Source: Spirochaetia bacterium (GTDB lineage Bacteria; Spirochaetota; Spirochaetia; SZUA-6; Bin103). From it: 64,000 bases of DNA. The position numbers and the translations under genes were made by a program. Shown piece by piece: positions 37,537 to 60,988 of this stretch. The stretch spans positions 1,664,001 to 1,728,000 of the forward strand of contig CBDBDQ010000005.1 in assembly GCA_965203905.1 (NCBI GenBank), written 5' to 3'. Numbering within the stretch: the stretch's first letter is position 1; every line of letters starts with the position of its first letter. Under the pieces are notes generated by a model. That model was given only the letters and a program-made list of their open reading frames with translations, was not told the origin of the DNA and made no database searches.

Positions 37537-37573
37537 GACTGCACCCTCCCCATCTCGGACGCGGTTGTATTGC

Positions 37574-37603: not shown

Positions 37604-37684
37604 GTAAACCAAATTAAATCGCCGTCCAGGGCAACGGCACACCGCATGCTGCGGGACGGGAGTCATTTGAAGAGAGGTACACAG

Positions 37685-39025: not shown

Positions 39026-39029
39026 TGCC

Positions 39030-39461
39030 ATGAATGTTCACCGCGACAAAAAGCTGATGCTCAGAACGTGGCCCGGTTTTCGGGTCTTGACCAGTACGAG
39101 CAGGCTCGTCCACTGGCGCGGCGAGCTTCAACCACTATGCCAGATCTACTCCGTTGAGATACGTCACCGCATTGGACGGCGACCTGGGTCTGCGTCTACC
39201 ACTCCGCAAGTGACGGTCGTGCAGCCACAATTGCGTCGTAGGGAAGAAGAACCGCACAAACCAATTCCCCATCACTACGCAAACAAGGAGAGTCCAGAAC
39301 TACCGTTTCTCTGTCTCTTTGATCCGGACACAACAGAGTGGAATCCGAGTATGCCGATCGCGACTACGATCGTACCTTGGACGATTGATTGGCTGGCTTG
39401 CTATGAGGGGTGGCTCGCTACTGGTGTTTGGACGGGGGGCGGTCGAGCACATGATGCGTAG
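39030..39461 (+). CDS. Stand-alone prokaryotic E2 (ubiquitin-conjugating fold) CBASS ancillary protein
   Basis: W.G.LQP....Y, IPHHY, LCLFDP (catalytic Cys), EW, TIVPWTIDWLACYEGWLATG.W.GGG. The start could instead be 39000 or 39006. Confidence 0.85.
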   Translation: MNVHRDKKLMLRTWPGFRVLTSTSRLVHWRGELQPLCQIYSVEIRHRIGRRPGSASTTPQVTVVQPQLRRREEEPHKPIPHHYANKESPELPFLCLFDPDTTEWNPSMPIATTIVPWTIDWLACYEGWLATGVWTGGGRAHDA

Positions 39462-47100: not shown

Positions 47101-47846
47101 GTGTGGCGCTCCAGGAACGGGCGGTCGACGAAGCCCCCGTCCAGCAGGCAGCGGGCCAGCGCCAGGTAGCAGGCGACATCGCTGCCGGGATTGATCTGCA
47201 GGTGCAGGTCGGCTATGGAGCAGCTCTGGGTGCGGCGCGGGTCGACTACGATCACCCGTGTCTCCGGGTCGCTCTGCCGGCGCGCCTCGATGCGCTGGAA
47301 CAGGATCGGGTGGCACCAGGCCGGGTTGGCGCCGGCGATCAGGAAGCAGCTCGCGCGCTCGATGTCGGCGTAGGCGATCGGCACGCTGTCCTCGCCCAGG
47401 GCCAGCTTGTAGGCGGTGACCGCGGTGCTCATGCACAGCCGCGAGTTGGTGTCGATGTTGTTGCTGCCGATGAAGCCCTTCATCAGCTTGTTGGCGACGT
47501 AGTACTCCTCGGTGAGGAGCTGGCCGGAGACGTAGAACGCCACCGACTCGGGGCCGTGGCGGTCGATCAGGGCGCGAAAGGTGGCGGCGACCCGGTCCAG
47601 GGCGCGGTCCCAGGTGGTGCGCGTCAGCGGTTGCGCGCGGCTGCCGCGCAGCAGCGGATACCGCAGGCGGTCGTCGGTGTCGGCGACCGTGTGATGCAGG
47701 TTGAGTCCCTTGGCGCACAGCCGGCCCCGGTTGGCCGGGTGCGCGGCGTCGCCGCGCAGGGTCAGGCGGCCGTTGCCGTGGCGGGTGACCTCGATGCCGC
47801 AGCCCACGCCGCAGTACGAGCAGGTGGTCTTGAAGCTGCGATCCAC
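44118..47846 (-). CDS. Assimilatory nitrate reductase (Mo-bisPGD) fused to an NAD(P)H/FAD oxidoreductase and a BFD-like [2Fe-2S] domain
   Basis: CSYCGVGC...LCAKG, SGQLLTEEYY, DTNSRLCM, SLTGQPNAMGGRE, TTGRLRDQWHTMTRTG; then VVGAGPA, LATGS, GGGLLGLE, YALGD; CSCHGV...GTGCGTC. Confidence 0.93.
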   Translation of the reverse strand: MDRSFKTTCSYCGVGCGIEVTRHGNGRLTLRGDAAHPANRGRLCAKGLNLHHTVADTDDRLRYPLLRGSRAQPLTRTTWDRALDRVAATFRALIDRHGPESVAFYVSGQLLTEEYYVANKLMKGFIGSNNIDTNSRLCMSTAVTAYKLALGEDSVPIAYADIERASCFLIAGANPAWCHPILFQRIEARRQSDPETRVIVVDPRRTQSCSIADLHLQINPGSDVACYLALARCLLDGGFVDRPFLERHTEGWDEVARQLAGVDLDLAAATCGVARADLERAAEMIGSAPTFLSLWAMGLNQSAAGVDKNLALLNLSLLTGQIGKPGSGPFSLTGQPNAMGGREVGGLATMLPAHRDLANPAHRRAVAALWGVEQVPARPGLTATEMFSALEAGTLKAIWIICTNPVVSMPDVRRAEAALGRARFVVVQDISSRSHSLPWADVVLPAAGWLEKQGTMTNSERRVTHLPKVVEPPGEARPDVWILCDFARRMGWEEAFAYRSEAEIFAEHTRLTAGTALDMTGIDYPRLQLGSIQWPCPAADHPGTERLFTDRRFATASGRARLHAVAEQDPGEPPCADFPFVLTTGRLRDQWHTMTRTGKVARLGQHERRPFAELHPDDAARLGVREGRTVEIASRYGAIRVPARLSDAIKPGVVFVPMHWGRTDTPRGDSGRANNVTSPRVDPRSMEPDFKYTAVAVRPLATTPRQVCVVGAGPAALAFVREYRAHNRHDRIRVFSAERELFYNRVLLVEYLAGRRRWPELQLTTPEELADLDLDLHPGTPVTAIDRDRHCVRAANGREYRYDRLVLATGSRARRLPDLPAQREGVVTLRNREDAHAAMALVSAGSRVLIVGGGLLGLELAAALAGQVAAVTVMQNRSLLLGRQLDATGSEVLRDALIERGVRLVFNDRVASFTGTPRVSGVRTEGGLLLDCDLLLVAVGTAPNRELGTAAGLHTRRALVVNSHLQTSDPKIYALGDVAEHNGRLYGTTEHAQEQARVAARHVTGDEWAAYADAPPYNVLKIPGTSVSTVGLTAPGAGEGAGDGFEEVTLLDRRMGYYKKCVVRHDRLVGAVLIGDNAEFAAFRRLIETGSELDEQREQLLRPAAAGLPGTPRGRLVCSCHGVGAGDLRAAVAAGSATLPELCAATRAGTGCGTCRPEVAAVLAESADTGTSPPKLGGPAAAAVSPTATLPALTGPPGSAGAAAPESPDSSCAEPAATAETVSTLDEQPRGAPVARHEEALA

Positions 47847-47854
47847 GGCTGCCT

Positions 47855-49702
47855 TCAGTACACGTCGCGCTGATAGCGGCGCGCCCGCTTCAGGCTCATC
47901 AGGTAGTTGGCGGCAGCGTCCGCGGAGCGGCCGCCGTGGATGGCGATCACCTGCCGCAACGCCTCGTCGACGGCCGGCGCCATCCGCTCGGCGTCCCCGC
48001 ACACGTACAGGTGGGCGCCCTCCTCCAGCCAGCGGAACAACTCGGCGCCCTGTTCGGAGATTCGGTGCTGGACATACACCTTGTGCCCCTGATCGCGCGA
48101 GAAGGCGGTGGTGAGGCGGGTGAGGGTGCCGTCGCCCAACCACGCCTCCAGCTCGTCGCGATAGAGAAAATCGGTGGCGCGGTTCGGGTTGCCGAAGAAC
48201 AGCCAGCTCCGCGCCCCGGCGCCGGCACGCGCCTGCCGCTCCTGCAGGAAGCCACGGAACGGCGCGATGCCGGTGCCGGGGCCGATCATCACGATGGGAG
48301 CCAGATCGTCGTCCGGCAGGCGGAAGTTGCGGTTGACGTGCAGGTACACCTGGACGGCCGCACCCGGGTGGGTACGCAGGCCGAGGAAGGTGGAACACAC
48401 GCCGTCGCGCGCACGCCCGGCGGCGACCCAGTGCACCATGGCGACGGTCAGGTGAATGGCATCCGCGGCGGCCAGCGGGCTGGAGGCGATCGAGTAGAGC
48501 CGCGGCCGCAGCGGAGCCAGTGCCGCCACCAGCTCCTGCGCGTTCAGCACGCCGGTGGCGGCGTCGCGCAGCAGGTCGAGCACGTCCACGCCGCCGCCGG
48601 CGCGCTCGGCCGGCATGCCCAGCCGCTCGGCCAGGGCGGCCCGCGGCCGGGTCAGGTCACAGCAGCGCAGCAGCGCCTCGCGCAGCGGTTGCCGGCTGCC
48701 GCCGTGCTCGACCGGCTCATCGGCGGCGCAACCGGCGGCGGCGAGTACCGCCTCCACCAGTGCCGGGTGGTTGCACGGCAGCACCCCGAGCGCGTCGCCC
48801 GGCCGATAGGCGATCTGCGAGCCGCCGATATCGAGAGCGACGTGGCGGATGTCCTTCACCGAGTCCGCTCCGGTGAGCGTGCGGCACTCCCGCAGCGACG
48901 CCCGGAATGGCTGGGCAGCGTCGTAGCCGGCGCCGGGATCGGGCTGCGCGGCGTCCGCCTCCGGCTCGGACAGCGCCCCGGCGAGCCCGGCGACCTGCGC
49001 GCTCCCGTTCCCGGTGCCACCGGGTGCGCCGGTGGCGCCCGCGGCCGCCGGCCAGCGTTCCTGCCAGCCGGCGAACGAGTCCAGATCCACGTCGCAGTCG
49101 GTGCACTCGCACAGACGGGTGCCGCCGAGGGCGGCCAGACGTTGATCCAATACGTGGCCGAATGCGCAGAAGTGCTGGTAGCTGGAATCGCCGAGCGCCA
49201 GCACCGCGAAGCTCACCTCGGCGAAGCTCGGCGCCTCCTCGCGGTTCAGTTCCGCCCAGAGCGGCTGGGCCGCATCCGGGGGTTCACCGTCGCCGTAGGT
49301 GCTGGCGATCACCAGCAGCGTGCCGGCGCCGGCCAGCGCCTCCGGCGACGCCTCGGCGGCGTCGATCACGCGCGCCGCGAAGCCGCGCGTGCGCGCCTGC
49401 TTGGCGGTCTTGCGCGCCAGCGACTCCGCGGTGCCGGTCTGGCTTGCGTACAGCACCGCCAGGGGCAGGGTCGGCGCCGCCACGGCCGGCGTTCGCCCGG
49501 CGCCGGCGAGGTCGGCACCGCTGAGCATTCCCGCCAGGTAGCCGTCCAGCCAGATCCGCTGCGCGACACTGAACGGCGCCTGCTCCGACACCAGGCCGAG
49601 CGCCGGGTCCTGGTTCGAAACTGCCGGCCGGCGGGCGACCCCGGTGCGTCGATTTTCATCGTTTTCGGTGTCACGGAGTGGCCGTGCTGCCTCAACTGCC
49701 AT
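47855..49702 (-). CDS. cysJ: Diflavin reductase, sulfite reductase flavoprotein alpha-like
   Basis: YASQTGTA, STYGDGEPP, LGDSSY..FC, RLYSIASS, GVCS, GPGTGIAPFR, YVCGDA, YQRDVY. Confidence 0.9.
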   Translation of the reverse strand: MAVEAARPLRDTENDENRRTGVARRPAVSNQDPALGLVSEQAPFSVAQRIWLDGYLAGMLSGADLAGAGRTPAVAAPTLPLAVLYASQTGTAESLARKTAKQARTRGFAARVIDAAEASPEALAGAGTLLVIASTYGDGEPPDAAQPLWAELNREEAPSFAEVSFAVLALGDSSYQHFCAFGHVLDQRLAALGGTRLCECTDCDVDLDSFAGWQERWPAAAGATGAPGGTGNGSAQVAGLAGALSEPEADAAQPDPGAGYDAAQPFRASLRECRTLTGADSVKDIRHVALDIGGSQIAYRPGDALGVLPCNHPALVEAVLAAAGCAADEPVEHGGSRQPLREALLRCCDLTRPRAALAERLGMPAERAGGGVDVLDLLRDAATGVLNAQELVAALAPLRPRLYSIASSPLAAADAIHLTVAMVHWVAAGRARDGVCSTFLGLRTHPGAAVQVYLHVNRNFRLPDDDLAPIVMIGPGTGIAPFRGFLQERQARAGAGARSWLFFGNPNRATDFLYRDELEAWLGDGTLTRLTTAFSRDQGHKVYVQHRISEQGAELFRWLEEGAHLYVCGDAERMAPAVDEALRQVIAIHGGRSADAAANYLMSLKRARRYQRDVY

Positions 49703-51500
49703 GGATCGGCGCTCCTGCCGGGACTCCCGGCGCCGCGGCCGTGCGGGTAGCATCTGCCTCGCCGGCAAGGTGCGTCACGGCGGCGACGCCCTGGCGGCGA
49801 ATGAACTCGTTGAAACTCTCCCCGGCCCGCCGGTGAGCCTGGTAGGCGCGCATCACCCGGGTCAGGAGCGCCGGCAGTTGTGCCACCGGGACCGCCCGGT
49901 ACGCCTCTTCGGCGAGCGCCTGCTCCTGATCCATGCCGCCGCCGAACAAGACGTTGTAGGCCTCCACCGGCTCGCCGTCATGGGTCGTTCCGACACCGAG
50001 CAGGCCGATGTCGCCGCAGTAGTGCTGGGCGCAGGAGTTGGGGCAGCCGGTCAGGTGGATGTTGATCGGGCCGTCGAGCGGCACGTTGCGTTCCAGGTGG
50101 CGGGCCAGGGCGACGGCGGCGCCCTTGGTGTCGGTCATGGCGTACTTGCAGCCGGCGTTGCCGGTGCACGCCACGGTACCGGCCGCGTAGCTCGACGGCG
50201 ACGCGCTCAGCCCGATCTGCTCCAGCGCCGCCGCCAGCGCGGTGGTGTCACGGTCGGCCACGTGCGGAATCAGCGGATTCTGGAACACGGTAAGGCGCAG
50301 CTCGCCCGCCCCGAACCGGTCCGCCAGGTCCGCCAGCGCCGCCATCCGGTCACCGGACAGCCGGCCGCCCGGTACGCCAGCCCCCACCCAGTTGCGACCG
50401 GGCTGGCACTGGCGGTGCACGCCGACGTGCGCGCCGCGCAGCACCGGTTTCGGTTCGGCGCACTGCTCGAGCGGCAGGCGCCGCAGCGCCGCGCCGAGCA
50501 GCGCCTCGGTCTCCGCTACGAACCGCTCGATTCCCCAGCGCTCCAGCACGTACTTGAGGCGTGCGCGCTTGCGGTTGGTGCGGTCGCCGGCGGCCGCAAA
50601 CACGCGCAGCATCGCCGCGACCACCGCGACGCACTCCTCCGGCGGCACCACGATTCCGGCGTCGTGGCCGAAGCTGCCGTGCCCGGTGATGCCGCCGAGC
50701 AACACGCGGAAGTACACGCCGGGCGCCAGTTCCGCGCCCGGCTCCGCGGCCTGTTCCGGGACCCGCACCGCGCGCAGGGCGATGTCATTGGTGGCCCCGG
50801 CCACGCTCACCTGGCCGCCGCTGTCGAATGCCACGTTGAACTTGCGCGGCAGCCCGTACAGGTCGCGGCTGTGGAGGATGTAGTGATGCAATGCGCGCGC
50901 CTGCGGGCGCACGTCGCACAGCTCCTGCGGGTCGAAGCCGGAGGTGGGCGTGGCGGTGACGTTGCGGATGTTGTCGGCTCCCGCCCCGCGCGAGGTGAGG
51001 CCGAGATCGTACAGGCCCATCAGCAGGTCGGGGGCATGGCCGGCGGCCACCTCGCGCAGCTGCAGATTGCCGCGCGTGGTCAGGTCGGCATAGCCCCCGG
51101 CGTACTCGGCGGCGAGTGCGGCCAGGCCGCGCAGTTGGCGCGAGCTGATCTGATTTGCCGGGATGCGCAGCCGGCACATGTACCCATCCTGCGCCGGGGC
51201 GGTGTGGAACAGGCCGTGAAACTTGTAGCGGAACACGTCATCCGCTTCCGGGAACCGCTCGTGCGCCGCATTGGCCACCACGGTGTCCCAGATGTCGAGC
51301 GGGTTGCGCTCGTGCTTGATCCGTTCCTCCCGCGACAGCTCGTCGACCGGTACGCCGTGTACCAGCGCCGCGTCCTGCGCCCCCGGCGACTCCCGCCGCC
51401 GCAGGGCGCCGGCAAACAGCTCTTCGAGATAGCGGCGCTGTTCGTCGGTGAACGGTGCCGCCGCGGGCGTTCCGGGAGCGGCGCCGTCGATCGAGGCCAC
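49692..51500 (-). CDS. nirA: Ferredoxin-type nitrite reductase (NirA family)
   Basis: KFHGLF, YMCRLRIP, LTTRGNLQLR, GADNIRN, LPRKFN, CTGNAGC, TGCPNSCAQH. The start (GTG 51500) is inferred. Confidence 0.9.
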   Translation of the reverse strand: MASIDGAAPGTPAAAPFTDEQRRYLEELFAGALRRRESPGAQDAALVHGVPVDELSREERIKHERNPLDIWDTVVANAAHERFPEADDVFRYKFHGLFHTAPAQDGYMCRLRIPANQISSRQLRGLAALAAEYAGGYADLTTRGNLQLREVAAGHAPDLLMGLYDLGLTSRGAGADNIRNVTATPTSGFDPQELCDVRPQARALHHYILHSRDLYGLPRKFNVAFDSGGQVSVAGATNDIALRAVRVPEQAAEPGAELAPGVYFRVLLGGITGHGSFGHDAGIVVPPEECVAVVAAMLRVFAAAGDRTNRKRARLKYVLERWGIERFVAETEALLGAALRRLPLEQCAEPKPVLRGAHVGVHRQCQPGRNWVGAGVPGGRLSGDRMAALADLADRFGAGELRLTVFQNPLIPHVADRDTTALAAALEQIGLSASPSSYAAGTVACTGNAGCKYAMTDTKGAAVALARHLERNVPLDGPINIHLTGCPNSCAQHYCGDIGLLGVGTTHDGEPVEAYNVLFGGGMDQEQALAEEAYRAVPVAQLPALLTRVMRAYQAHRRAGESFNEFIRRQGVAAVTHLAGEADATRTAAAPGVPAGAPIHGS

Positions 51501-51502
51501 GG

Positions 51503-52861
51503 TTACGCGGCGCTCGGGGCGACTTCGAGCCGTGCCCGGCGCAGCCGCTCTTCCATCTCTGCGCGCGCCTCCACCTCGGCCGCCGGGGAGAAGCGCACCA
51601 GCAGCGTCAGCGAAGAGGCGCAGACCACGACGACCCCCAAGAGCAGCAGCGCCTGGGGCCATGGCAATCCCTCCATTCGGAACAGCAAGCCCGCGGCCAC
51701 CGCACCGGCGTTGCCGCCCGCACCGACGATGCCGGCCACCGAGCCGAGCGCCTTGCGGTTGATGAACGGCACCACCGAGTAGGACGCTCCCTCCGACATC
51801 TGCACGAACATGCTGAACGCCACCAGGGTGACGATCGCCACCGGGAGCACCGCCATGCGCGAGAACAGGATCAGGGCCAGCCCCTCGCCTGCCAGCACCA
51901 CGCCGAGAAAGGCCACCCGGCCCTTCAGGCCCCACTTCCTGCCGGCGCGGTCGCCGAACACGCCGCCCAGGGTGCGGGCGAAGATGTTCATCAGCCCGAA
52001 CAGCCCGGCGACGATCCCGGCCGCCTTCAGTCCCAGGTCGAAGTAATCCCTGAAGTACAGGGCGGCGATGTTGTTGACCGTGAGCTCGATGCCGAAGCAC
52101 GCGCCGTAGATCACGAACAGCACCCATACCCGCCGGTCGCGCGCCGCCAGCAGGAACGACCCCTTGGCCTGGCCGGCGCTCGCCATGCGCCGCGCGGCGC
52201 GCAGCTCGCGGTAGTTGCCGTCCACCGTGTCGGTGGTCAGGAACCAGTACAGCACCCCGGTAACGAGCATGGCGATGCCGGGCACCACCATCGCCAGGCG
52301 CCAGCTGATGGCGTCGGTGAATCCCAAGGCAACGAACAGGGCGAAGATCAGCGGCATCGCCATCTGCGTGACGCCGCCGCCGAGGTTGCCCCAGCCGGCC
52401 GTGGTGGCGTTCGCCGTGCCGACCACGTTGGGTGCGAAGGTCATCGAGGTGTGGTACTGGGTGATGACGAAGCTGGCCCCGACCGCGCCGATCGCCAGCC
52501 GGAACAGCAGGAACGAGGTGTAGCTGTTCGCCAAGCCGATGCCCATGACGGGAAGCGCGCCAAGCAGCAGCAGCCAGGTATAGGTGATGCGCGGCCCGAA
52601 ACGGTCGCACACCCAGCCGATCACCAGCCGTGCGACGACCGTGATCGCCACCGAGGCGATGATGGTGTTGCCGATCTGGGCCTGGGTGAGCGCCAGTTCC
52701 TCGCGCACCACCGCCATCAGCGGCGCGATCCCGAACCAGCCGAAGAAGCACAGGAAGAACGCGAACCAGGTCGTATGGAAGATGCGCATGGCCGGTTTCC
52801 GGTAGTTGAACAGGTCGATGCGCGTGGCCTTCGCGATCGCCAGAGAGGGGGAGTCGGACAA
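51503..52861 (-). CDS. narK: MFS nitrate/nitrite transporter (NarK/Nrt2 family)
   Basis: Nitrate signatures G.AN..TAGWGNLGGG and G.VAGIVGAGGN.G; FH.TWFAFF.CF; multiple TM helices. Confidence 0.93.
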   Translation of the reverse strand: MSDSPSLAIAKATRIDLFNYRKPAMRIFHTTWFAFFLCFFGWFGIAPLMAVVREELALTQAQIGNTIIASVAITVVARLVIGWVCDRFGPRITYTWLLLLGALPVMGIGLANSYTSFLLFRLAIGAVGASFVITQYHTSMTFAPNVVGTANATTAGWGNLGGGVTQMAMPLIFALFVALGFTDAISWRLAMVVPGIAMLVTGVLYWFLTTDTVDGNYRELRAARRMASAGQAKGSFLLAARDRRVWVLFVIYGACFGIELTVNNIAALYFRDYFDLGLKAAGIVAGLFGLMNIFARTLGGVFGDRAGRKWGLKGRVAFLGVVLAGEGLALILFSRMAVLPVAIVTLVAFSMFVQMSEGASYSVVPFINRKALGSVAGIVGAGGNAGAVAAGLLFRMEGLPWPQALLLLGVVVVCASSLTLLVRFSPAAEVEARAEMEERLRRARLEVAPSAA

Positions 52862-52900
52862 CGGGGACCTCCGAGGAGCCGTTTTGTTGCCTACCCATAG

Positions 52901-52915
52901 GCAAGACCCGTGCCA
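52901..52915 (-). promoter_or_regulatory. Sigma-54 (-24/-12) promoter of the nitrate assimilation operon
   Basis: Minus strand reads TGGCACGGGTCTTGC (TGGCAC-N5-TTGC), 40 nt upstream of the transporter start. Confidence 0.85.
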
Positions 52916-53151
52916 TTGCCCTTGCAGCGCCCCATCGGCCTCAGGCGGCCTTTTGAGAAATACAAAAACGTATGTTAGCGGATTATCAGATACCTATTTG
53001 TAGTTTTTGATGTATCACGTTACTCAAGTGTAGGTTTTGGTTCACTGTGCAACCAGGCCGACCCGGTGGATGCGACCAGAGCGTTGAGAGAAGCCGTCAA
53101 GGCGATACAGGAACGACAGTCGGCGGCGCGCCGGTCGCGCGGCGCCGTGTC

Positions 53152-53349
53152 TCACGTGGTTGATGTGTTTTGAGGATTGCTCAACATGCTGATGATATGC
53201 TTGGCCAAATGGTCGGAGATTTCGCGGTGTCGGGGTACTGGTTGGGGAACGCCGGTCTTCGGGTTACGGTACCAATCGTGCTTGGCGCCGTGTCTCACGA
53301 GTATGCAGCCCGCCTGCTCTATCTCTCGGATCAGGTCGCGTCGTTTCAC
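53152..53349 (-). CDS. hicA: HicA toxin
   Basis: MKRRDLI...GC.LVRHGAKHDWY.NP....QPVPRH.EI...LA..I. Confidence 0.92.
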   Translation of the reverse strand: MKRRDLIREIEQAGCILVRHGAKHDWYRNPKTGVPQPVPRHREISDHLAKHIISMLSNPQNTSTT

Positions 53350-53537
53350 GACACAACGAGTTCGTCCACCTTGCGAACACCAGCAACAACGCCGACGCTC
53401 AAGTCGCGATAGAGGTCCCGCAGGTGCTCCTTGAGGTCGGCCAAGGTCTCACCCTGACTCCAGTAATCGGGGTAGTCTTGGAGATAGCCGATCCAGATGC
53501 CGTCCGCTTGCCAGTACACGAATTTCACTGTTGTCAT
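53346..53537 (-). CDS. hicB: HicB antitoxin (short)
   Basis: W.GYL.DYPDYWSQGETL.DLKEHL.DLY; GTGA overlap with hicA. Confidence 0.88.
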   Translation of the reverse strand: MTTVKFVYWQADGIWIGYLQDYPDYWSQGETLADLKEHLRDLYRDLSVGVVAGVRKVDELVVS

Positions 53538-53758: not shown

Positions 53759-54058
53759 TCAGTCGTCGCGGAGGGCGTGGTGTTCGGACCAGAGGCGCAG
53801 CGCCAGGGCGAAGTCGCGCTCGCGCAGCGCTACCAGGGCGCGCACCGCGAGCGACTCGGGACAGCGGTGCAGGGAGCAGGCGCGCTCGGCGGCGGCGCGC
53901 GCCGGTGCGGTGTGTCCGGCGCTGAGCGCCGCGCGCGCCCGCTGCCGCAGGCCGGCCGCGCAGCGTTCGATGAGCAGGACCTGCCGCAGGTCGGTGTGGC
54001 ACCGGTGGCACTCGGGCCCGCCGCGATGGCGGACGCCGCAGGTGGGGCATCGCTGCAC
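53759..54058 (-). CDS. Zn-ribbon + TPR-like small protein
   Basis: CPTC...CHRC.TDL followed by Ala/Leu-rich helical hairpins; starts 3 nt after the Hsp70 stop. Confidence 0.75.
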   Translation of the reverse strand: MQRCPTCGVRHRGGPECHRCHTDLRQVLLIERCAAGLRQRARAALSAGHTAPARAAAERACSLHRCPESLAVRALVALRERDFALALRLWSEHHALRDD

Positions 54059-54061
54059 GCG

Positions 54062-55828
54062 CTACTCCAGGTAGAACAGGATTTCTTCCAGGTCCCGCGT
54101 GGCTACGGCGGCGCGCTCGGTATCGCCGGCATTCGCAGCATCGCGAAGATCCTCCATCAGGTTGACGATCTCCTCCTTGTCTTCATCCGGGGCTTTTGCC
54201 AGGACCGCTTCCGCCCGCCTCAGCAGGTCGCGGATCTCGGGCGGTAGTTCCGGTGCGCCCGCCAGTTGCGGGGCATCGGCTGCGTCCGGCTCCGTTTCCG
54301 CGCCCCAGCGGGCGCTGATCCGCTCTTGCGAGGCGTCGAGCGCCTCCTCCGTGGAGCGGCCGATCGCCTGCTCGATCACGCCGCGGATCTCGCGGCCGGT
54401 GGCCCGCTCCACGGCGTGCACGCTCAGGATGCCGTCCAGGTCCAGGTGGTAGGTGAACAGCAGGCCGCGGTCGCGAGCTCCCTGCTGGCTGTTCAACCCC
54501 TCGAACAGGAAGGTGCCGATCTCGACGTTCTGCAACGCGTCCGCGTCCTCCCCCTGATACACCTTGATCTCGGCGGACGGCTGATTCTCGTACACCGTGT
54601 AGAACGCCTCGGTGTGGGTGGCAGGCAGCTTCGCGTTGCGCCGGATCAGCGGCACGAACTGATGCGCGTAGGGACGCCCGTCGAGTTCACCCAGGATGCT
54701 GGTGCCGAACGTGTAAGGCGTGATGTCGACCAGCACGGCCGGCATGTCCAGACCCATTTCGATGCCCGCCTGCACGCCGGCCCCCAGCGCCACGCACAGC
54801 TCCGGGTTCACTTCCCCGTGCGGCTCCTGTCCCAGGCGCTCGGCCAGCAGTTGGGAGACGCGCGGAATGCGGGTCGATCCGCCGACCAGCAGAATCCGGT
54901 CCAGCTCGTTCGGGCGCACCGCCGCGTCATTGAGTGCGGTGGTGACGGCGCGCATGGTGCCGGCCAGCAGCTCCTCGATGGCGCCCTCGAAGTCGGTGCG
55001 GCTCCACTCCCATGACAGGTGCTTCACGGCGCCGTCCACCGTGGCCACGTGATCTTCCTCGACCAGCACGTACGGCTGCCGGGAGAGTTCGACCTTCGCC
55101 TGTTCCGCGGCCCTGCGCAGCCGCGCCTGCAGCACGCGGTCGTCGCGTGCGCCGTCGAGCCCGGCATCCGTCTCCAGGTGGTCGTTGATGCGATCCAGGA
55201 TCAGCGCGTCGAAGTCGTCGCCGCCGAGGTGATTGTCGCCGCTCGTAGCCAGCACTTCGACCACCCCGCTCTCGATCTTCACCACCGACACGTCGAACGT
55301 GCCGCCGCCAAGGTCGTACACCAGAATCTTGCGTTCCCCGTCGTCGCCGCCGTGGTAGGCGAGGGCGGCCGCGGTGGGTTCGTTGATGATCCGCACCACC
55401 TCCAGGCCGGCGATCCGGCCCGCCTCGCGGGTCGCCTGCCGCTGGGCGTCGGTAAAGTAGGCGGGCACGGTGATCACCGCCTTGCGCACCGGACGTCCGA
55501 GCGCACCGGCCGCCCGCTCCTTGAGCGCCTTCAGGATGAACGCCGATATCTCCTGCGGGCTGTACGCTTCCGATCCCATGCGCACGCGCGTGTCGGAGCC
55601 CATCAGCCGCTTGATCGAGCGTACCGTCCGTTCCGGGGCTACCGCATACTGGTTGCGCGCCTGGTGTCCCACCACGATCGCTCCCGCGTCGTCCAGGCCC
55701 ACGCACGAGGGCAGGATCGCGTCGTCATCCGTGCCGACGATCCGTGGCGCGGCGCCGGCGATGATCGCCACCTCCGAGTTGGTGGTGCCCAGGTCGATGC
55801 CGATCACCGGCTCACGATCGGCTGCCAT
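54062..55828 (-). CDS. Hsp70-family chaperone (specialised DnaK paralog)
   Basis: GIDLGTTNS, TVPAYF, IINEPTAAA, YDLGGGTFDVS, LGGDDFD, LVGGSTRIP; divergent linker VLVDITPYTFG; short lid and no disordered tail. Confidence 0.95.
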   Translation of the reverse strand: MAADREPVIGIDLGTTNSEVAIIAGAAPRIVGTDDDAILPSCVGLDDAGAIVVGHQARNQYAVAPERTVRSIKRLMGSDTRVRMGSEAYSPQEISAFILKALKERAAGALGRPVRKAVITVPAYFTDAQRQATREAGRIAGLEVVRIINEPTAAALAYHGGDDGERKILVYDLGGGTFDVSVVKIESGVVEVLATSGDNHLGGDDFDALILDRINDHLETDAGLDGARDDRVLQARLRRAAEQAKVELSRQPYVLVEEDHVATVDGAVKHLSWEWSRTDFEGAIEELLAGTMRAVTTALNDAAVRPNELDRILLVGGSTRIPRVSQLLAERLGQEPHGEVNPELCVALGAGVQAGIEMGLDMPAVLVDITPYTFGTSILGELDGRPYAHQFVPLIRRNAKLPATHTEAFYTVYENQPSAEIKVYQGEDADALQNVEIGTFLFEGLNSQQGARDRGLLFTYHLDLDGILSVHAVERATGREIRGVIEQAIGRSTEEALDASQERISARWGAETEPDAADAPQLAGAPELPPEIRDLLRRAEAVLAKAPDEDKEEIVNLMEDLRDAANAGDTERAAVATRDLEEILFYLE

Positions 55829-56586
55829 CAACCCGCTCCCTCCGTTCCCTGCAGGCGGTTGACCGCCACTTCGGCCAGGCGCAGCACCGCGCCGTCGCGC
55901 ACGAAACCACTGACGAATTCCTCCACCACGACCCCCTCTTCCTGCTGCTTGGACCGGCGTGTCTCCACGGCGTGCATGGTGCGGGCATCGAACCGCGCTC
56001 CCACCGCGGACCCGCCGCGCACGCCGAACTGCGCCAACATGCGGTCGCAGCGCCTGATCGCAAGCTCGTAGCCCTCGATCACCCCGGCGATTCCGGGCTC
56101 CATGCGGCGCCACAGCTTGCGCGCGCCCTTGCGCCGCCGCTTCCTGCCCTTGCTGCCGGCGCTCCGCAGCCGCGCCGCAGCGTCGCGGCCGCGTACCAGG
56201 GCGTCTCGCAGCTCCAGAACCGGCAGCAGACAGCGATTCTCGGCCGCGCGGGCGACCCGCTGTTCGAAGGCCGCCAGTTCCTCGTCGCGGCGTTCCAGCA
56301 CGCGATCGATCGCTTCGTAGCGGGCCGCGGCGCTGGTCAGCTCGCGCCCCGCCCGTGACTGCTCCCGGTTCTGCAGCCGCACCTCCTGCCGCAGCGCGGC
56401 GAGCTCCGAGAACAGGGTGTGCAGGTCACAGGGCGGGGCGCCACGATCTGCCTCCTGCTCGGCCGCTTCCTCCGGCGCGGCGTCCAGTTCATCCAGCCAC
56501 TGCGTGAACTGTTCCAGCGCCTGCCGCTTCCAGTCGCCGTGGCTGCGCTCGGTCTGCGCCACCGCGTCCAACCGCACGCCGTTCAC
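55828..56586 (-). CDS. grpE: GrpE-family nucleotide exchange factor
   Basis: Coiled coil, then LLPVLELRDAL, G..FD..TMHAV, GVVVEE...GF...G.VLR.AEV.V; TGATG overlap with Hsp70. Confidence 0.88.
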   Translation of the reverse strand: MNGVRLDAVAQTERSHGDWKRQALEQFTQWLDELDAAPEEAAEQEADRGAPPCDLHTLFSELAALRQEVRLQNREQSRAGRELTSAAARYEAIDRVLERRDEELAAFEQRVARAAENRCLLPVLELRDALVRGRDAAARLRSAGSKGRKRRRKGARKLWRRMEPGIAGVIEGYELAIRRCDRMLAQFGVRGGSAVGARFDARTMHAVETRRSKQQEEGVVVEEFVSGFVRDGAVLRLAEVAVNRLQGTEGAG

Positions 56587-56891
56587 TGCGTCAGCCCTTC
56601 CGCCGCCAGCAGCGCCTGCAGGCCGGGCGCCTTGCGAGCCCCCGTGCGCGCCTGCACCAGGGCCTCCAGCGCCAGCTCCCAGTCGCTGTACGCCGCGATC
56701 CCGAACAGGGCGGTCCGCACCCGCGAGCGGTCATCCTGCAGCGCCTCGTAGGCGGCCGTGACGCGCTGGAAGCGCTCCGGATCGCGGCTCGGGGGGTGAC
56801 GGCGGATCAAGGCCAGGTAACGCTGCCGTATCTCCTCCTGGCTGGCGCCCGGGGCAAGATCCAGGGTCAGGTAGTGGGCCAACATCAACAT
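56583..56891 (-). CDS. Small J-domain protein (HPP variant)
   Basis: HYLTLDL...AS.EEIRQRY..L.RRHPP.RDPERFQ.V..AYEAL; GTGA overlap with grpE. Confidence 0.85.
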   Translation of the reverse strand: MLMLAHYLTLDLAPGASQEEIRQRYLALIRRHPPSRDPERFQRVTAAYEALQDDRSRVRTALFGIAAYSDWELALEALVQARTGARKAPGLQALLAAEGLTQ

Positions 56892-59722
56892 CGCTCCTTG
56901 CCGGCGCCGCCGGCGTCATCCCTGGTATACAGCAAGGCGTCCAACTCCGGCGACAGTGCCGCGCGCCGCGCGTGAGTCCCACACCAGGTGGCCAAGTCGT
57001 CGAGTATCCGTCCGACCGCTCCGTCGCCGCGTACGGCGTGCGCGGTCTCGGTCATGATCTCCGGCGCCGCGCCGCGCAGTCCCGCGCTGTCGATCATCGC
57101 TTCCAGGCGATCCAGTATCACCAGGGTCTCATCTTCCTCGAACAGCAGCCCCTGCCCGCGCCGATCCAACCGTCCATTGCGCGCGGCCCTGCTCAGCGCC
57201 GCCCGGAACTCCCGCGGCGACGGCCCGGTCTCCGTCTCCTCCGCGGGCTCGTCCAGGCCGGCATCCCCGGCATCTTCGGCGGCCTCGGGATCTTGCAGAC
57301 CTCCCAGGATCCGATCCAGCATCCCCGGCGCACCCAGATCTTCGATTATCTCCCGCAGATCCTCGAACGACGGAACCATCCGCTCCAGCGACTCGAAGTC
57401 GAACTGCTGCAAGGCCTGCCGCAGCGGCTGGTCCACCAGGGGGGCGAGGCGCTTCGCCGCCTCACGCAAGCGCCGGCGCCCGGGGGCATCGGCGTGCTCG
57501 ACGACCTCGAGCAAACGTGTCGCATCGTAGTCCTCGCGCTCTTCGTAGCGGATCACCGCGAGGTAGAACCGCAACAGGGGGTCGTGATCGGTCGCACGGC
57601 CACCGCGCAGACGGCGTTCCAGCTCGTCGCGAACGGTCTTGCGTCCCTCGCAGGCAAGCAGCGTGTCGAAGCAGGCGGTCAGGCGATCGCCGTCGAGGCG
57701 CGCCAGCAGCGCCTGCCACCACCGGGTCAGGACCGGAGCGACCCGCAGACTCCCGTACAGGATGCGGCAGTCGGCCGGCAGGTCGGCCACCAGCTCCAGC
57801 GCTTCATCCGGGTCGAGCCGGGCGATGGCACCGGCGGCCCGGGCCAGAACCTGGCGCAACGCGGAGGCGATGCCCGGATCGACGTTCTTGACGTTGCGAT
57901 TCTCCCCCAGGTCATGAATCGCCACCGCCAGCGTCCGGAGCCGCGCCGCCGGCGCCAGCGGCTCCAGGAGCGGGGCGGCTACCGCTTCGACACCCGCACC
58001 GGCCTCGGCATCGGCGCCGGCCCGGACCAGTTCCAGGAGCAGGCGCTTGACCCGCAGGATCGGCTCCAGCCGCGGCCGCCGCAGGTCGGCGGCGCGCGCC
58101 AGATCCCGCGCCGCGAGCGGGAATCTGCCGCGCTTGCGGCTCTGATCGGCGGACTTGAGAAAGCCGATCGCCTGCAGGTCGAGGATGCGGTCGTCGTAGG
58201 GGGCGCGCCGGAGCGCCTCGCCGAGCGCCGCCTCGGCACGCCGGTAGGCGTTGCGGGCGTAGTGCTGGGTCGCCAGCTCCAGCCACGGTTCGGGGGCGTC
58301 GGGGTAGCGTGCCGCCAGCTCCTGCAGGATGGCGCTCAGCCGGCCTTCGTCAGCCGTCGGGTTCCGGCGCAACAGGTCGAGCAGGAAGTGATAGCCGGTG
58401 GTGGATTGCGGATCGGCGGCCAGGCTGGCCAGCATCAGGTCAACCAGCACCAGGTCGGGGTCCTGGGGGGGCGTGCCGAGCAGAGAGGCGACGTGCCGGG
58501 TCTCGTCAGCGTCGAGGCCGTACCGGTGAATCCCCGCTTCGGCACCGCTCCGGGCGAGCGATTCGAGCACCCACCCGCGGGCCAGCGGCTGATCTTCCGG
58601 GCACGGGAACGGCACGGACAGGTTGTCGAGGTACATCACCGCGGCGCTCGGATCCCAGATTTCGCCGGGGTCGGCGTGCTGGAGCAGCAGGGTGGCCTGC
58701 GTCGTGATGCTGATGAAGTACTCCTCCGGCACCGTCTGCGCCGCGACGTCGAAGAAAACGGATACCGGCACCGAGCTCTCGAAACATGCCCGCGCCGCGA
58801 TCATCAGCAGGTCGATCCGCGCCGCGAGGGGATTCTCGGGGTAGACGACGTCCGCGAGGCTGACCAGGTGCCGCACGATCTGAGGCTCGGCGCCGCGGTG
58901 CAGCGCCTGGTGCAGCCTGGCGGCCATGGCCGCGACCAGCGCGTCATCGGTGCCGAGCGCCTGCTGGACCGCGGCCGGGCCCGTCACCTCGCCGCCGGCG
59001 GCGCAGCGCTTGAGCTCGGCCACCGTGCCGCTGAGCGCGAATCCCTCCGGCAGCAGGCGGGCGGCGCGCTCGAGGCCGCGGTCGTCGCCGGCGCAGAAGC
59101 TCGCCATCGCCTTGCAGAACGTCCGCCAGGGGGCATAGGGCGAACGCCGCGGAATGCCGTCCAGGAGACCTGCCGCGCATTCCCAGTCCCCGCGGTCCAT
59201 GGCTTCGACGCTGCGTTCCACCGGCGCCGCGTCGCGCCGCAACGGGTGGTCGGCCGGGAGAGATTGCAGCGGCTTCCAGCAACGGTCGATCACCACCCGG
59301 TCAGCCACTACCCGTGCGGCCGTGTCCAGCGGCGGCCGGGTGCCGAGATACTCGGCATAGACCGCCGCCGCCTCGCCCCCGTCCAGGCAGCGCAGATAGC
59401 GGACCAGGTCAGGCTCCGACAGGTCCTGAACCGCGATCGCCGCCTGCTGCTGACCGGCGCGGTCGCGCATGGCGGCCGCCTCCCCGGCCAGGCCCTTGCG
59501 GGCCAACTCGCGCGCGCGTTCGACGCAGGCGCAGAACAGCCACAGGGGCAGCTCACCGGAATCACTCCCCTGACGCGGCACGCGCCGGAGCAGCTCCAGC
59601 GCCTTGCGCGGGTTGCCCTCGTCCAGGTCTTGGCGGGCCTGCGCGAGCAGGCGCTCGGGCGGCAGACGCTGTTGCGGGGAACGCTTCTTCTTGCGGTGCT
59701 TCGCACGCCGCTTAGCGCGCAT
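56885..59722 (-). CDS. Large TPR/alpha-solenoid protein
   Basis: 945 aa, helical. TPR-like units such as PDAPEPWLELA..Y..NAYRRAEAALGEALRRAPYD; basic N-terminus; overlaps the J-domain start. Confidence 0.8.
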   Translation of the reverse strand: MRAKRRAKHRKKKRSPQQRLPPERLLAQARQDLDEGNPRKALELLRRVPRQGSDSGELPLWLFCACVERARELARKGLAGEAAAMRDRAGQQQAAIAVQDLSEPDLVRYLRCLDGGEAAAVYAEYLGTRPPLDTAARVVADRVVIDRCWKPLQSLPADHPLRRDAAPVERSVEAMDRGDWECAAGLLDGIPRRSPYAPWRTFCKAMASFCAGDDRGLERAARLLPEGFALSGTVAELKRCAAGGEVTGPAAVQQALGTDDALVAAMAARLHQALHRGAEPQIVRHLVSLADVVYPENPLAARIDLLMIAARACFESSVPVSVFFDVAAQTVPEEYFISITTQATLLLQHADPGEIWDPSAAVMYLDNLSVPFPCPEDQPLARGWVLESLARSGAEAGIHRYGLDADETRHVASLLGTPPQDPDLVLVDLMLASLAADPQSTTGYHFLLDLLRRNPTADEGRLSAILQELAARYPDAPEPWLELATQHYARNAYRRAEAALGEALRRAPYDDRILDLQAIGFLKSADQSRKRGRFPLAARDLARAADLRRPRLEPILRVKRLLLELVRAGADAEAGAGVEAVAAPLLEPLAPAARLRTLAVAIHDLGENRNVKNVDPGIASALRQVLARAAGAIARLDPDEALELVADLPADCRILYGSLRVAPVLTRWWQALLARLDGDRLTACFDTLLACEGRKTVRDELERRLRGGRATDHDPLLRFYLAVIRYEEREDYDATRLLEVVEHADAPGRRRLREAAKRLAPLVDQPLRQALQQFDFESLERMVPSFEDLREIIEDLGAPGMLDRILGGLQDPEAAEDAGDAGLDEPAEETETGPSPREFRAALSRAARNGRLDRRGQGLLFEEDETLVILDRLEAMIDSAGLRGAAPEIMTETAHAVRGDGAVGRILDDLATWCGTHARRAALSPELDALLYTRDDAGGAGKERC

Positions 59723-59809: not shown

Positions 59810-60988
59810 TCAGTACCTGCCGATGGCGGAGAAGTCGAGTTCGATGATCGGTTGCTCGGCCCCTTCCGGGGAGCTGAAGACGATGAAACCGAGGTCGGCG
59901 AGTCGGATGAGCTCGCGGCGGAAGGTGCGCGGGGTGACGGAGCGATACGCGGATCTGACGTAGGGCGACGCCATCAGGTGCGCCAGCGAGATCTGTTTCG
60001 ACGGCTTTTCGGCAAAGGGATCGTCCGGCTCTGTCTCACTGAGCAGGAAAGTCAGCAGGCGGTACTCCCGGTCGTTGAGGATCCGGCGTCGCTTACCCGC
60101 TCTCCGGTTGTACGCCCGCAACATGGTGGAGCGGTACACCAGCCGGTTCAGCTTGGTCTTGATGAAGTTGTTGATGCCGCCGAGTTCCGCGGCAAAGCCC
60201 TTGAGGGCGAAGTTCACGAACGGCGAGACGTGGAACGGCTGCGACGTGCGGCACTCCTGGAGACGCATCTTGTACTCGTCGCCGTTACGGTAGAAGTAGT
60301 TGGACAAGCCGTAGAAGCCATGCACGTTGTAGCCATCCTGGTACAGCATCGCGGCCTCCACCAGCCGCGAGACGCGGCCGTTGCCGTCGCCGAACGGATG
60401 GATGGTGACCAGGAAGAAGTGACCGAGGAGCGCGCGGATCACCGGGTGCTCGCGTAGCATCCTGGCGGAACTGACGAACGCCACGAACCCCTCCATCAAC
60501 TGCGGGATGTCCTCGGGTGGAGCACCACGATGCACCCCGCCGAGCGCGGGTGTTCCGGCGACCACACGGTGACGACGAAATCTACCGGGTACGTTGTCCT
60601 TCTCGTCGGAATCGCGAGTCATCAACCGATGCATCTGCAGGATGTCCTCCAGTTGCAATGGCCGCTTGCCGCTTTCGAATCTGGACCGGACCCAGTCCTG
60701 CGCGTTGCCCGCGTTCCTGATCTGCACCTGCTCGCGCGTCCGGCTCCGTACGGTGTCGCCGCCATCCAATGACTCCGCCACCTGCTCCTCGGATAGCGGA
60801 TTGCCCTCAAGAGCGGTGGTTCCGTGTACCGCACGCACGCGATTGAGCCGGTCGAGCTGGTCGCGCCAGTCCCGCGGCAACATGAGGTTGTAGGCCGTCC
60901 CTCGGTACGCTTCGATCGTGATCAACAGCGTGGGGTCATCGATCTCTAACCGGTAATCGAACTCGAACCGCTCCCAATCCATCGCCAC
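59810..60988 (-). CDS. Fic family protein (class II, N-terminal inhibitory helix)
   Basis: Canonical HPFGDGNGRVSR; inhibitory motif TTALEG; C-terminal wHTH-like region. Confidence 0.93.
   Translation of the reverse strand: MAMDWERFEFDYRLEIDDPTLLITIEAYRGTAYNLMLPRDWRDQLDRLNRVRAVHGTTALEGNPLSEEQVAESLDGGDTVRSRTREQVQIRNAGNAQDWVRSRFESGKRPLQLEDILQMHRLMTRDSDEKDNVPGRFRRHRVVAGTPALGGVHRGAPPEDIPQLMEGFVAFVSSARMLREHPVIRALLGHFFLVTIHPFGDGNGRVSRLVEAAMLYQDGYNVHGFYGLSNYFYRNGDEYKMRLQECRTSQPFHVSPFVNFALKGFAAELGGINNFIKTKLNRLVYRSTMLRAYNRRAGKRRRILNDREYRLLTFLLSETEPDDPFAEKPSKQISLAHLMASPYVRSAYRSVTPRTFRRELIRLADLGFIVFSSPEGAEQPIIELDFSAIGRY

Follow-up and report, generated by a model that had tools for sequence, protein, structure and literature searches.

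A conserved five-gene cassette built around an HscC-like Hsp70, a candidate specialised chaperone system of uncultured bacteria

Organization of the locus

The sequence analysed here is a 64,000-nucleotide stretch of a Spirochaetia genome (assembly GCA_965203905.1, contig CBDBDQ010000005.1, positions 1,664,001 to 1,728,000; hereafter, the window), in which a cassette of five genes around an Hsp70 chaperone occupies positions 53759-59722, boundaries that were retained as first delimited. The five open reading frames (ORFs) are tightly coupled, all of them lie on the minus strand, and all show a high GC content at third codon positions, as do real genes of this ~70% GC window. The first of them (56885..59722) encodes a large protein of 945 amino acids, hereafter BIG, which the ORF and an AlphaFold2 (AF2) model present as a solenoid of the tetratricopeptide repeat (TPR) type. 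It is followed by the gene of a J-like protein recognised by the Pfam DnaJ profile (56583..56885 for 100 amino acids, or up to 56891 for 102), a gene for a GrpE of 252 amino acids (55828..56586; Pfam GrpE), the Hsp70 gene (54062..55828; Pfam HSP70), encoding 588 amino acids from the ATG at 55828 or 589 from a TTG at 55831, and finally a gene for a cysteine-rich protein of 99 amino acids (53759..54058), with a zinc ribbon and two TPR-like units according to its AF2 model and its invariant cysteines.

The gene junctions consist of overlaps of 1-7 nt or a 3-nt gap. The stop codon of BIG overlaps the start of the J-like gene (…TGTTGATGTTGG…), the J-like and GrpE genes meet at GTGA, the GrpE and Hsp70 genes at TTGATG, and the Hsp70 and small genes are separated by 3 nt (TAG-CGC-GTG). 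An earlier note on this DNA, made from its sequence, had described five genes overlapping or lying at most 3 nt apart, flanked by fic and hicBA and with no hrcA, canonical dnaJ or CIRCE element (controlling inverted repeat of chaperone expression) in sight, and this description was confirmed on each count. The spacing holds at all junctions. No other Hsp70 or DnaJ was detected in the window by tblastn with E. coli DnaK, DnaJ, HscC and DjlC, and no HrcA, DnaJ or second GrpE was found among the 43 ORFs scanned of the 54 predicted in it. Sites resembling the consensus of CIRCE or HAIR (HspR-associated inverted repeat) were absent from the window and from all 61 upstream regions examined in the related loci described below. 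On one side of the cassette, the Fic gene (59810..60988, given as 60988..59810) was identified by Pfam (6.8e-17) and by the SoFic model of PADLOC (1.5e-43); on the other, HicA (53152..53349, given as 53349..53152) was identified by Pfam (2.8e-9), and the 63-amino-acid partner upstream of it had no Pfam match.

Conservation and spread of the cassette

For BIG, the protein collection searched yielded 206 relatives of full length, down to 46% identity and none of them named, 18 of which made up the query alignment (A1). A scan of a genome collection of 185,579 species with two peptide patterns, by which divergent members will be missed, retrieved 62 related loci, all of them from uncultured metagenome-assembled genomes (MAGs) or single-cell genomes. 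When these loci were searched by tblastn with the five proteins of the window, 52 of them turned out to have all five genes with order and strand unchanged, and another eight end at contig ends before the cassette does, with the order intact as far as it is present. The two exceptions are L062, with a BIG fragment of 85 residues only, and L033 (7944-13712), with an intact BIG without the other four genes. In L033, a type IIG restriction-modification enzyme of the MmeI type (1119.9 bits in PADLOC) lies downstream on the opposite strand and a DDE transposase gene lies upstream of BIG, so that this locus may be a cassette broken by insertion. Chance cannot account for such a recurrence of the five genes in this order. 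The genes for the TPR and zinc-ribbon proteins are strictly conserved with this Hsp70 clade; the earlier note had named their non-conservation as what would speak against its proposal.

Identity to the proteins of the window ranged across loci from 57 to 91% for the Hsp70, 53 to 89% for the J-like protein, 46 to 78% for the small protein, 43 to 79% for GrpE and 30 to 77% for BIG. Every complete locus includes the GrpE gene within the cassette, and the spacing is also kept, with at most 10 nt between the J-like and GrpE genes in 49 of the 52 loci and between the GrpE and Hsp70 genes in 48 of them. Clustering of the 873 predicted ORFs of the loci revealed that, beyond the cassette genes, the most widespread cluster is present in just six loci. 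None of the 62 related loci has a match to HicA or HicB, and only the two closest ones have fic; therefore, these flanks are not part of the unit. In the window, hicBA (53152-53537) looks like an insertion specific to its lineage, and the closest relative (L001, 13966-14107) has a gene for a major facilitator superfamily (MFS) transporter directly after the cassette.

The cassette appears under seven phylum labels. The records are labelled as Spirochaetia (the closest, with 76-77% identity), Latescibacterota, Vicinamibacterales/Acidobacteria, Binatia, Alpha- and Gammaproteobacteria, Dehalococcoidia and, in one case, Syntrophobacterales. An unrooted tree of concatenated BIG and Hsp70 sequences from 49 loci and the window, which points to no donor, grouped Acidobacteriota (16), Spirochaetota (7), Latescibacterota (7) and Chloroflexota (2) into one clade each, with Pseudomonadota (12) in at least two places, and the branching among phyla follows no accepted species tree. 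Such a pattern is compatible with a single acquisition in each lineage and vertical inheritance thereafter. In addition, the chromosome of an Alphaproteobacteria MAG (OZ243972.1) contains two near-identical cassettes (L044 and L047) separated by ~0.4 Mb, with IS1-like and DDE transposases, a phage-type integrase and a Mu Gp27-like gene in their flanks.

The neighbourhood of the cassette was analysed on 90 of 137 unique clusters of neighbouring proteins (at least 200 amino acids, within 3.5 kb), the other 47 being dropped. Matches to PADLOC at 1e-10 were obtained for 10 of the 90, about seven of which, as a raw count, are credible defence genes: AbiLi/PDC-M38A, Schlafen-like, PDC-S33, a MkoA-like helicase, the type IIG restriction-modification enzyme, PDC-S03 and DarG. 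About 11 of the 90 are transposases, integrases or Mu proteins, and most neighbours are metabolic or housekeeping genes. The 873-ORF clustering revealed no conserved secretion genes near the cassette. Genes for ankyrin-repeat proteins lie within ~2.5 kb downstream of it in two Latescibacterota loci, L004 (16136-16912) and L006 (13700-14737).

An HscC-like Hsp70

The Hsp70 of the window matched the Pfam HSP70 family at 1.4e-137 and scored below the cut-offs of both DnaK equivalogs of NCBIfam (490.6 bits versus 648 for NF001413 and 481.8 versus 822.55 for TIGR02350). Its relatives were collected by a search of 1.84 billion cluster representatives, to which DnaK, HscA and HscC of E. coli K-12 were added, and trees were built with quick methods only (FastTree with 129 rows and the quick mode of IQ-TREE with 51 rows) and rooted on E. 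coli HscA. In both, the cassette Hsp70s and E. coli HscC belong to one clade (99 rows, support 100, in FastTree; 36 rows, support 98, in IQ-TREE), and E. coli DnaK and its relatives fall outside of it. Within this clade, E. coli HscC and its relatives are on one side and a large group (support 99) that includes the cassette Hsp70s on the other, so the protein of the window, 32% identical to E. coli HscC, is outside the E. coli HscC subclade.

The features listed for HscC-type proteins in PMC8215388 were then checked in DnaK numbering on an alignment of E. coli DnaK, HscA and HscC with the Hsp70 of the window and five relatives. The window protein and all five relatives have the deletion of DnaK residues 76-101 in lobe I of the nucleotide-binding domain that is found in E. 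coli HscC. A four-residue deletion around D211 is also common to the cassette Hsp70 and HscC, as is the "PY" of the interdomain linker (VLVDITPYTFG), and an 8-residue insertion (…ELDGRPYAHQ…) is found at the HscC position in loop L1,2 of the β subdomain of the substrate-binding domain (SBDβ). The long disordered C-terminal tail of DnaK is missing. As described in PMC8215388, HscC-type proteins have 550-580 amino acids, an insertion of 4-8 residues in L1,2, a shortened helix B and a short acidic/aliphatic tail; the Hsp70 of the window has 588 amino acids and its relatives 580-619, and the region after SBDβ is a variable low-complexity stretch, so that the helix B deletion cannot be placed. Residues 283-297 of DnaK, which include the GrpE-signature loop, are present at full length in the cassette Hsp70s and gapped in both E. 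coli HscC and HscA. The same source describes HscC as lacking this loop and thought not to use GrpE, and its retention here fits with a cassette that has its own GrpE.

Residues D8, K70, P143, R151, E171, D194, T199, D201, L391 and D393 are invariant in the 50 sequences aligned (50/50), by which the catalytic and allosteric core of the protein is intact and the protein should be an active enzyme. The residues that contact the HPD motif of J-domains in DnaK (R167, Q378, L391 and P419) are also invariant in the cassette Hsp70s. Little is left of the acidic patch by which DnaJ is positioned on DnaK: E206 varies, D211 has been lost to a deletion and S or H stands in place of D477. The C-terminus follows the pattern L(D/E)E(I/L)(L/M)FY(L/V)(E/D/G/R), which reads LDEILFYLE in the window, with F586 and Y587 invariant in the 50 aligned Hsp70s (50/50); in one more locus, L028, the C-terminal end is different and looks disrupted. 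Similar LFYxE-like ends are found in many other representatives of the same large Hsp70 clade.

Taken with the tree, these features make it very probable, as far as sequence comparison goes, that this Hsp70 belongs to a specialised system distinct from the housekeeping DnaK. The full ATPase domain and the divergent linker, substrate loop and short lid that the earlier note had ascribed to it are all there in the alignment to the three E. coli proteins. Its resemblance to HscC had been missed in that note, as had the loss of the HPD motif in the J-like protein and the occurrence of the cassette in several phyla and, in a related version, on cyanobacterial plasmids, described below.

A J-like protein without HPD and a divergent GrpE

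The J-like protein matched Pfam DnaJ (PF00226) with an E-value of 6.5e-9 and 36.2 bits over a cut-off of 27.8, and its ATG at 56885, giving 100 amino acids, coincides with the "MLAHY" start of its relatives. It consists of a J-domain fold and a putative C-terminal anchor of ~45 amino acids. None of the further features of class A and B DnaJ proteins (the glycine/phenylalanine-rich (G/F) region, the zinc finger and the C-terminal client-binding domains) is present in the 100-102 amino acids of the protein, which scored 22.7 bits against the 377.2 required by the DnaJ equivalog TIGR02349; the J protein is indeed as minimal as the earlier note had claimed.

The His-Pro-Asp (HPD) position was tallied in 60 sequences, from 59 loci and the window. 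It reads HPPS in 30 of them, HRPG in 17, HPPG in three, HRVG in two and NPPS in two, with six single variants, so that none of the 60 has D or E at the third position and five also lack the histidine. As reported in PMC8215388, the HPD motif is required, and no system tested retains ATPase stimulation once its His or Asp is replaced. By profile, then, this is a J-fold protein, which in sequence lacks the motif by which functional J-domain proteins are defined.

GrpE was recognised by Pfam (PF01025; 2.3e-16, 60.3 bits over a cut-off of 25.8). The GrpE equivalogs of NCBIfam were all far below their cut-offs (33.7 bits versus 184 for the best one); thus, it is a divergent GrpE. Its 252 amino acids are counted from a GTG that overlaps the stop codon of the J-like gene, and as most relatives have 222 amino acids, the true start may be a later one.

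The zinc-ribbon/TPR protein

The 99-amino-acid protein gave only a sub-threshold Pfam match to TPR_2 (E 0.0042). Its zinc ribbon has the pattern CPTC-x9-CxRC, the four cysteines of which (C4, C7, C17 and C20) are invariant in 49 sequences, and the AF2 model (mean predicted local distance difference test, pLDDT, 94.2) presents the ribbon followed by four helices forming two TPR-like pairs. In a profile search, 122 clusters of this protein were retrieved, each of them called hypothetical. No structure was matched by Foldseek at E ≤ 0.001. The best of the matches were small TPR domains, superimposed over 64-74 columns with a template modelling (TM) score of ~0.6 and a root-mean-square deviation of 1.1-1.6 Å, and these had been solved with C-terminal peptides of Hsp70 or Hsp90: Sec72, RPAP3, Tah1, Hip, SGT, TPR1 of Hop and CHIP. 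Because of this small TPR fold and of the invariant tail of the Hsp70, a role of the small protein as a clamp on the LFYLE tail suggests itself by analogy, an assignment that we regard as possible, if rather unlikely. The protein was also considered as a homologue of Hep1 (zf-DNL), for which Pfam gave no support and which leaves an analogy only.

BIG is a helical solenoid predicted to bind the J-like protein

For BIG too, Pfam gave only a sub-threshold match (TPR_19, E 0.0092), and its assignment as a TPR-like solenoid comes from the structure model. Built on an alignment of 80 sequences, the AF2 model (pLDDT 84.7) consists of paired helices only, with two disordered stretches, residues 1-16 and 784-832. 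The N-terminus is basic, with a median of nine K/R among the first 20 residues in the 80 sequences versus 14% K/R overall, and 16 of the 49 residues of the disordered linker are D/E, which makes it acidic. No hydrophobic N-terminus resembling a signal peptide was seen in the sequence. Foldseek against the PDB returned only generic long TPR scaffolds (Ski3, Ctr9, IFT-A, TTC7B and Naa15; TM 0.12-0.22) and no enzyme fold. There were no matches to BIG in 50,697 phage or 72,556 plasmid records. A look-up in the protein Atlas yielded generic TPR clusters only, with recognition below the reliable range, and was not used.

A complex of BIG (residues 25-917) with the J-like protein was predicted, each chain being given its own alignment. 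The interface score (ipSAE) was 0.74 in three runs, versus 0.00 for the best of three controls; the mark used for this score is reached by 116 of 157 solved complexes and by two of 215 mismatched pairs. The runs agreed in at least 96% of contacts, with a partner pLDDT of at least 85. In the predicted interface, residues 52-100 of the J-like protein (plus 1-3, 6 and 11-12) lie on residues 145-440 of BIG, whereas helices II-III and the HPP loop are outside of it, which leaves the J fold free. In addition, a metagenomic homologue of BIG of 1031 amino acids (P0272) was found directly fused to a J-like protein (…FLRNFAMLAHYQTLGL…), which, as a single sequence, would be weak independent support for the pairing; two other BIG matches that were longer than expected look like frameshifted calls. 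From the complex model, we consider that BIG probably binds the J-like protein as a pair.

A related version on cyanobacterial plasmids

A tblastn search of the plasmid database PLSDB with the Hsp70 revealed a related architecture in cyanobacteria, with the best matches in Nostoc sp. UHCC 0302 (44%, on a 40-kb plasmid) and Acaryochloris marina S15 (40%). There, the genes follow the order TPR protein (846 or 837 amino acids), DnaJ domain-containing protein (98 amino acids), GrpE and Hsp70 family protein, and in Nostoc, a TPR protein of 150 amino acids comes after the Hsp70. The J proteins read FPAH in place of HPD, and the large TPR proteins begin with a basic tail. The small protein of Nostoc has CPVC...CRRC followed by TPR helices and is homologous to the 99-amino-acid protein of the window (hhalign 97.3%, E 2.6e-11). 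Nostoc has both the small gene and an Hsp70 tail with LYY, and Acaryochloris S15 has neither.

The cyanobacterial Hsp70s are inside a clade of 28 rows together with those of the cassette but are not their nearest neighbours; thus, the architecture may go back to the ancestor of a far larger family. The cyanobacterial version is present on five plasmids, and free-living or epiphytic strains, from lake sediment and an algal surface, are among its carriers. Three of the copies belong to Acaryochloris sp. "Moss Beach" (L069 on pMB02, L070 on pMB03 and L071 on pMB01), where both the TPR and the GrpE gene are split and the gene table, which omits pseudogenes, has no entry for an Hsp70, so these copies appear to be decayed; all three are surrounded by genes for CpXC, prohibitin, a transglycosylase and an RNB ribonuclease. 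A match in a Ralstonia megaplasmid, from an unannotated record, was discarded because its list of ORFs is unlike the cassette.

A candidate self-contained Hsp70 machine

The reading that we favour, with a probability of about 0.55, is that the five genes together encode a single Hsp70 machine, self-contained and specialised, which is separate from the housekeeping DnaK and has spread horizontally between lineages. In this machine, BIG and the J-like protein would form a stable pair, in which the N-terminal half of BIG encloses the C-terminal half of the J-like protein and leaves the J fold turned outwards, so that both together would act as a split class-C J-protein of the TPR type, the predicted targeting unit. 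The exposed J fold would recruit the HscC-like Hsp70 of the cassette. Because the aspartate of HPD is missing, this fold would probably tether or regulate the Hsp70 rather than trigger ATP hydrolysis in the canonical way, and client binding or another subunit would then be needed for hydrolysis; a tether instead of a trigger is a tentative assignment to which we give slightly less than even chances. The cassette GrpE would reset the Hsp70, as suggested by the retained GrpE-signature loop and by the strict co-occurrence of both genes, and the zinc-ribbon/two-TPR protein would be a fourth co-factor that clamps the LFYLE tail in the way of the TPR co-chaperones that recognise EEVD. Candidates for the client are proteins that the solenoid holds and BIG itself, the latter by way of its basic N-terminal tail; for E. 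coli HscC, a preference for positively charged peptides has been reported.

Several observations weigh against parts of this proposal. The invariance in the Hsp70s of the residues that contact HPD means that the J fold may activate in some non-canonical way, and E. coli DjlC, with HPE, is described in PMC8215388 as activating non-canonically. The interface predicted on BIG is no more conserved than the rest of the protein (22 of 70 interface residues versus 212 of 823 others, p = 0.32), and the lone fusion P0272 could be the consequence of a lost stop codon or a sequencing or gene-calling artefact. With regard to the clamp, the fold matches of the small protein are not significant, and they reflect in part a bias of the library, as co-chaperones of Hsp70 and Hsp90 make up most of the small TPR domains in the PDB. 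Furthermore, the co-variation between Hsp70 tail and small gene comes down to one contrasting lineage in an incomplete PLSDB gene table. Finally, the large TPR protein of cyanobacteria, tested with that of Nostoc, is not detectably homologous to BIG (hhalign probability 0.9%, E 0.059), the only aligned stretch being the one that covers the motif DxGDxxxAAxLLxxIxRRS.

Three other explanations were considered. That the cassette is simply the housekeeping DnaK-DnaJ-GrpE operon of the organism in an unusual arrangement would agree with the encoding of all three canonical functions, with the intact ATPase and allosteric residues and with the lack of another Hsp70 in the window, to which that tblastn search was confined. 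We nevertheless hold it to be extremely improbable: the Hsp70 falls below the DnaK equivalog cut-offs and has both the indels and the tree placement of HscC, and the J protein of 100 amino acids lacks HPD, the G/F region and the zinc-finger client-binding domains. Moreover, only 62 loci were found in 185,579 species genomes, within the limits of the patterns used, one genome has two copies, the cyanobacterial copies are plasmid-borne and sometimes decayed, and, according to reviews (PMC13580251), the genomes analysed in them have a canonical DnaK alongside their DnaK derivatives. Set against this operon, the "private" Hsp70 system of the earlier note has stood up well. The same note had placed the 945-amino-acid protein as client or sensor of the chaperone; the link to the chaperone gains support from the predicted BIG/J complex, and the idea of a TPR effector does not, since BIG is a helical scaffold without an enzymatic domain.

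The proposal derived from that idea, an anti-phage or abortive-infection module in which the Hsp70 holds a TPR effector or sensor until phage or proteotoxic titration releases it, appears quite improbable to us. The cassette is patchy and mobile, it is found in the window between a SoFic-like Fic and hicBA, together with a CBASS-like SMODS and patatin pair (CBASS, cyclic oligonucleotide-based anti-phage signalling system) and ATPases resembling the STAND class (signal transduction ATPases with numerous domains), about seven credible defence genes and about 11 mobile-element proteins are among its 90 neighbours, and a host chaperone is described in PMC12169576 as taking part in phage sensing by bNACHT25. 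However, none of the five proteins matches PADLOC at E ≤ 0.01 (0/5), and no nuclease, protease, NADase, pore-forming or other effector domain was found in them by Pfam, NCBIfam or the models. The flanking hicBA and fic do not travel with the cassette, most neighbours, in raw counts, are metabolic or housekeeping genes, and BIG is absent from the phage and plasmid records searched; the stress or anti-phage effector module of the earlier note has thus not been borne out. As a third possibility, BIG could be a eukaryote-like TPR protein for symbiosis, acting for instance once exported, and kept folded or export-competent by a private Hsp70. This would fit with the origin of all 62 loci in uncultured MAGs or single-cell genomes, with a spread across phyla like that expected from gene exchange within one habitat, with the ankyrin-repeat genes beside the cassette in L004 and L006 and with the mix of phyla (Acidobacteriota, Latescibacterota, Spirochaetota, Binatota, Chloroflexota and Alpha- and Gammaproteobacteria), which resembles that reported for sponge microbiomes; TPR and ankyrin repeat proteins are described as enriched in sponge-associated MAGs in PMC8163846. 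Yet BIG lacks an N-terminus like that of a signal peptide, no conserved secretion genes are found nearby, and the same architecture exists in free-living or epiphytic cyanobacteria, so that such a host-association factor is, in our opinion, improbable.

Relation to known systems

The closest parallel to the specialised machine favoured here is HscC of E. coli with DjlC and DjlB, in both cases a specialised Hsp70 of the non-essential type with a dedicated J partner. HscC has in common with the cassette Hsp70 the deletions of DnaK 76-101 and of the D211 loop, the L1,2 insertion, the "PY" linker, the short lid and the aliphatic/acidic tail. DjlC and DjlB resemble the J-like protein in the short loop between helices II and III and in a non-HPD variant (HPE in both), and the E. 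coli hscC locus also encodes TPR-like (Sel1) proteins, YbeQ and YbeT. In contrast, the cassette keeps the GrpE-signature loop and its own GrpE, its J partner has 100 amino acids (483 in DjlC) and no carboxylate at the HPD position, and the 945-residue solenoid and the zinc-ribbon TPR protein are additions.

A second likeness is to the TPR-J proteins and TPR co-chaperones of eukaryotes (Hop, CHIP, Tah1, Sec72 and SGT). DNAJC3/p58IPK and DNAJC7 are eukaryotic TPR-J proteins, in which TPRs and a J fold make up a targeting unit, encoded here as two polypeptides predicted to bind each other, and as in eukaryotes, a small TPR module co-occurs with an Hsp70 that bears an invariant C-terminal motif. 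The differences are that the likeness is one of fold and architecture only, with fold matches that are not significant, that the motif is LFYLE instead of EEVD and that the J fold lacks HPD. In mitochondria, Pam16/Tim16 is a J-like protein without HPD that regulates Hsp70, and Hep1/Zim17 is a zinc-ribbon escort of Hsp70. They resemble the J-like and the small protein, respectively, as functional analogies only, as cysteine spacing and context differ and no cassette protein matches zf-DNL or Pam16 of Pfam. The idea that bacteria possess in the cassette a mobile counterpart of the Hsp70/TPR co-chaperone network of eukaryotes, with LFYLE as the address, the zinc-ribbon TPR protein as the clamp and a solenoid with a detachable, HPD-less J fold, is speculative and, in our view, unlikely. 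If true, it would be a portable service for the folding or remodelling of large repeat proteins or for the sensing of proteotoxic or phage insult, exchanged among unrelated, mostly uncultured and possibly host-associated lineages and cyanobacterial plasmids.

By description only, the cassette can also be likened to MxDnaK2 (SglK) of Myxococcus xanthus, a second Hsp70 of the DnaK type, without the tail, not heat-induced and encoded beside a GrpE paralogue, MXAN_6672 (PMC11019930). It differs in that no neighbouring gene for a J-protein, TPR solenoid or zinc-ribbon protein is reported in the parts of PMC11019930 that describe it. No description of the architecture was found in open-access full-text papers and preprints, and within the searches made, four features appear not to have been described together: an own GrpE, an HPD-less J subunit predicted to sit on a very large TPR solenoid, a TPR protein with a zinc ribbon and an invariant Hsp70 tail.

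To our knowledge, specialised bacterial Hsp70s other than HscA are almost unstudied, and the cassette is a cleanly delimited and conserved example in which all partners are encoded together. It bears on how an Hsp70 can work with a J fold that lacks HPD, on whether bacteria use TPR recognition of the Hsp70 tail and on why an HscC-like Hsp70 keeps a nucleotide exchange factor, and its patchy spread across phyla makes it a case study of the horizontal transfer of a complete chaperone system. The lineage of the window is known only from metagenomes, but the plasmids of cultured Nostoc and Acaryochloris make experiments possible.

Other genes of the window

Additional genes of the window were annotated in the same analysis. 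The CBASS-like set (36472-40536) includes an IrrE/M78 peptidase with a helix-turn-helix domain (36472-37647, minus strand), the SMODS nucleotidyltransferase (37646-39025) and the patatin phospholipase (39319-40536), and is followed by a DUF5131 phage-type protein (40684-41454). ATPases of the STAND or AAA type resembling defence genes were found at four other positions, encoding an AAA_16 protein (3929-5233), a protein with AAA_16, ORC-CDC6-like and TPR regions (5202-7667), an AAA_21/SMC_N protein similar to AbiEii or OLD (9680-11428) and an AAA_22/AAA_16 protein (32605-34134).

Beside hicBA, positions 42613-52916 are occupied by a cluster for nitrate/nitrite assimilation, which includes a fusion of molybdopterin oxidoreductase and pyridine-nucleotide-disulphide oxidoreductase of 1426 amino acids, a flavodoxin/FAD/NAD reductase, NIR_SIR proteins, one of them with a rubredoxin domain, and an MFS transporter; some of the ORF calls in this cluster overlap by hundreds of bases, and their starts are uncertain. 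Finally, a lipid-type cluster adjoining ABC-2 transporter genes (22951-27119) encodes an AMP-binding/PP-binding/acyltransferase fusion of 824 amino acids, a phosphopantetheinyl transferase and a fatty-acid desaturase.

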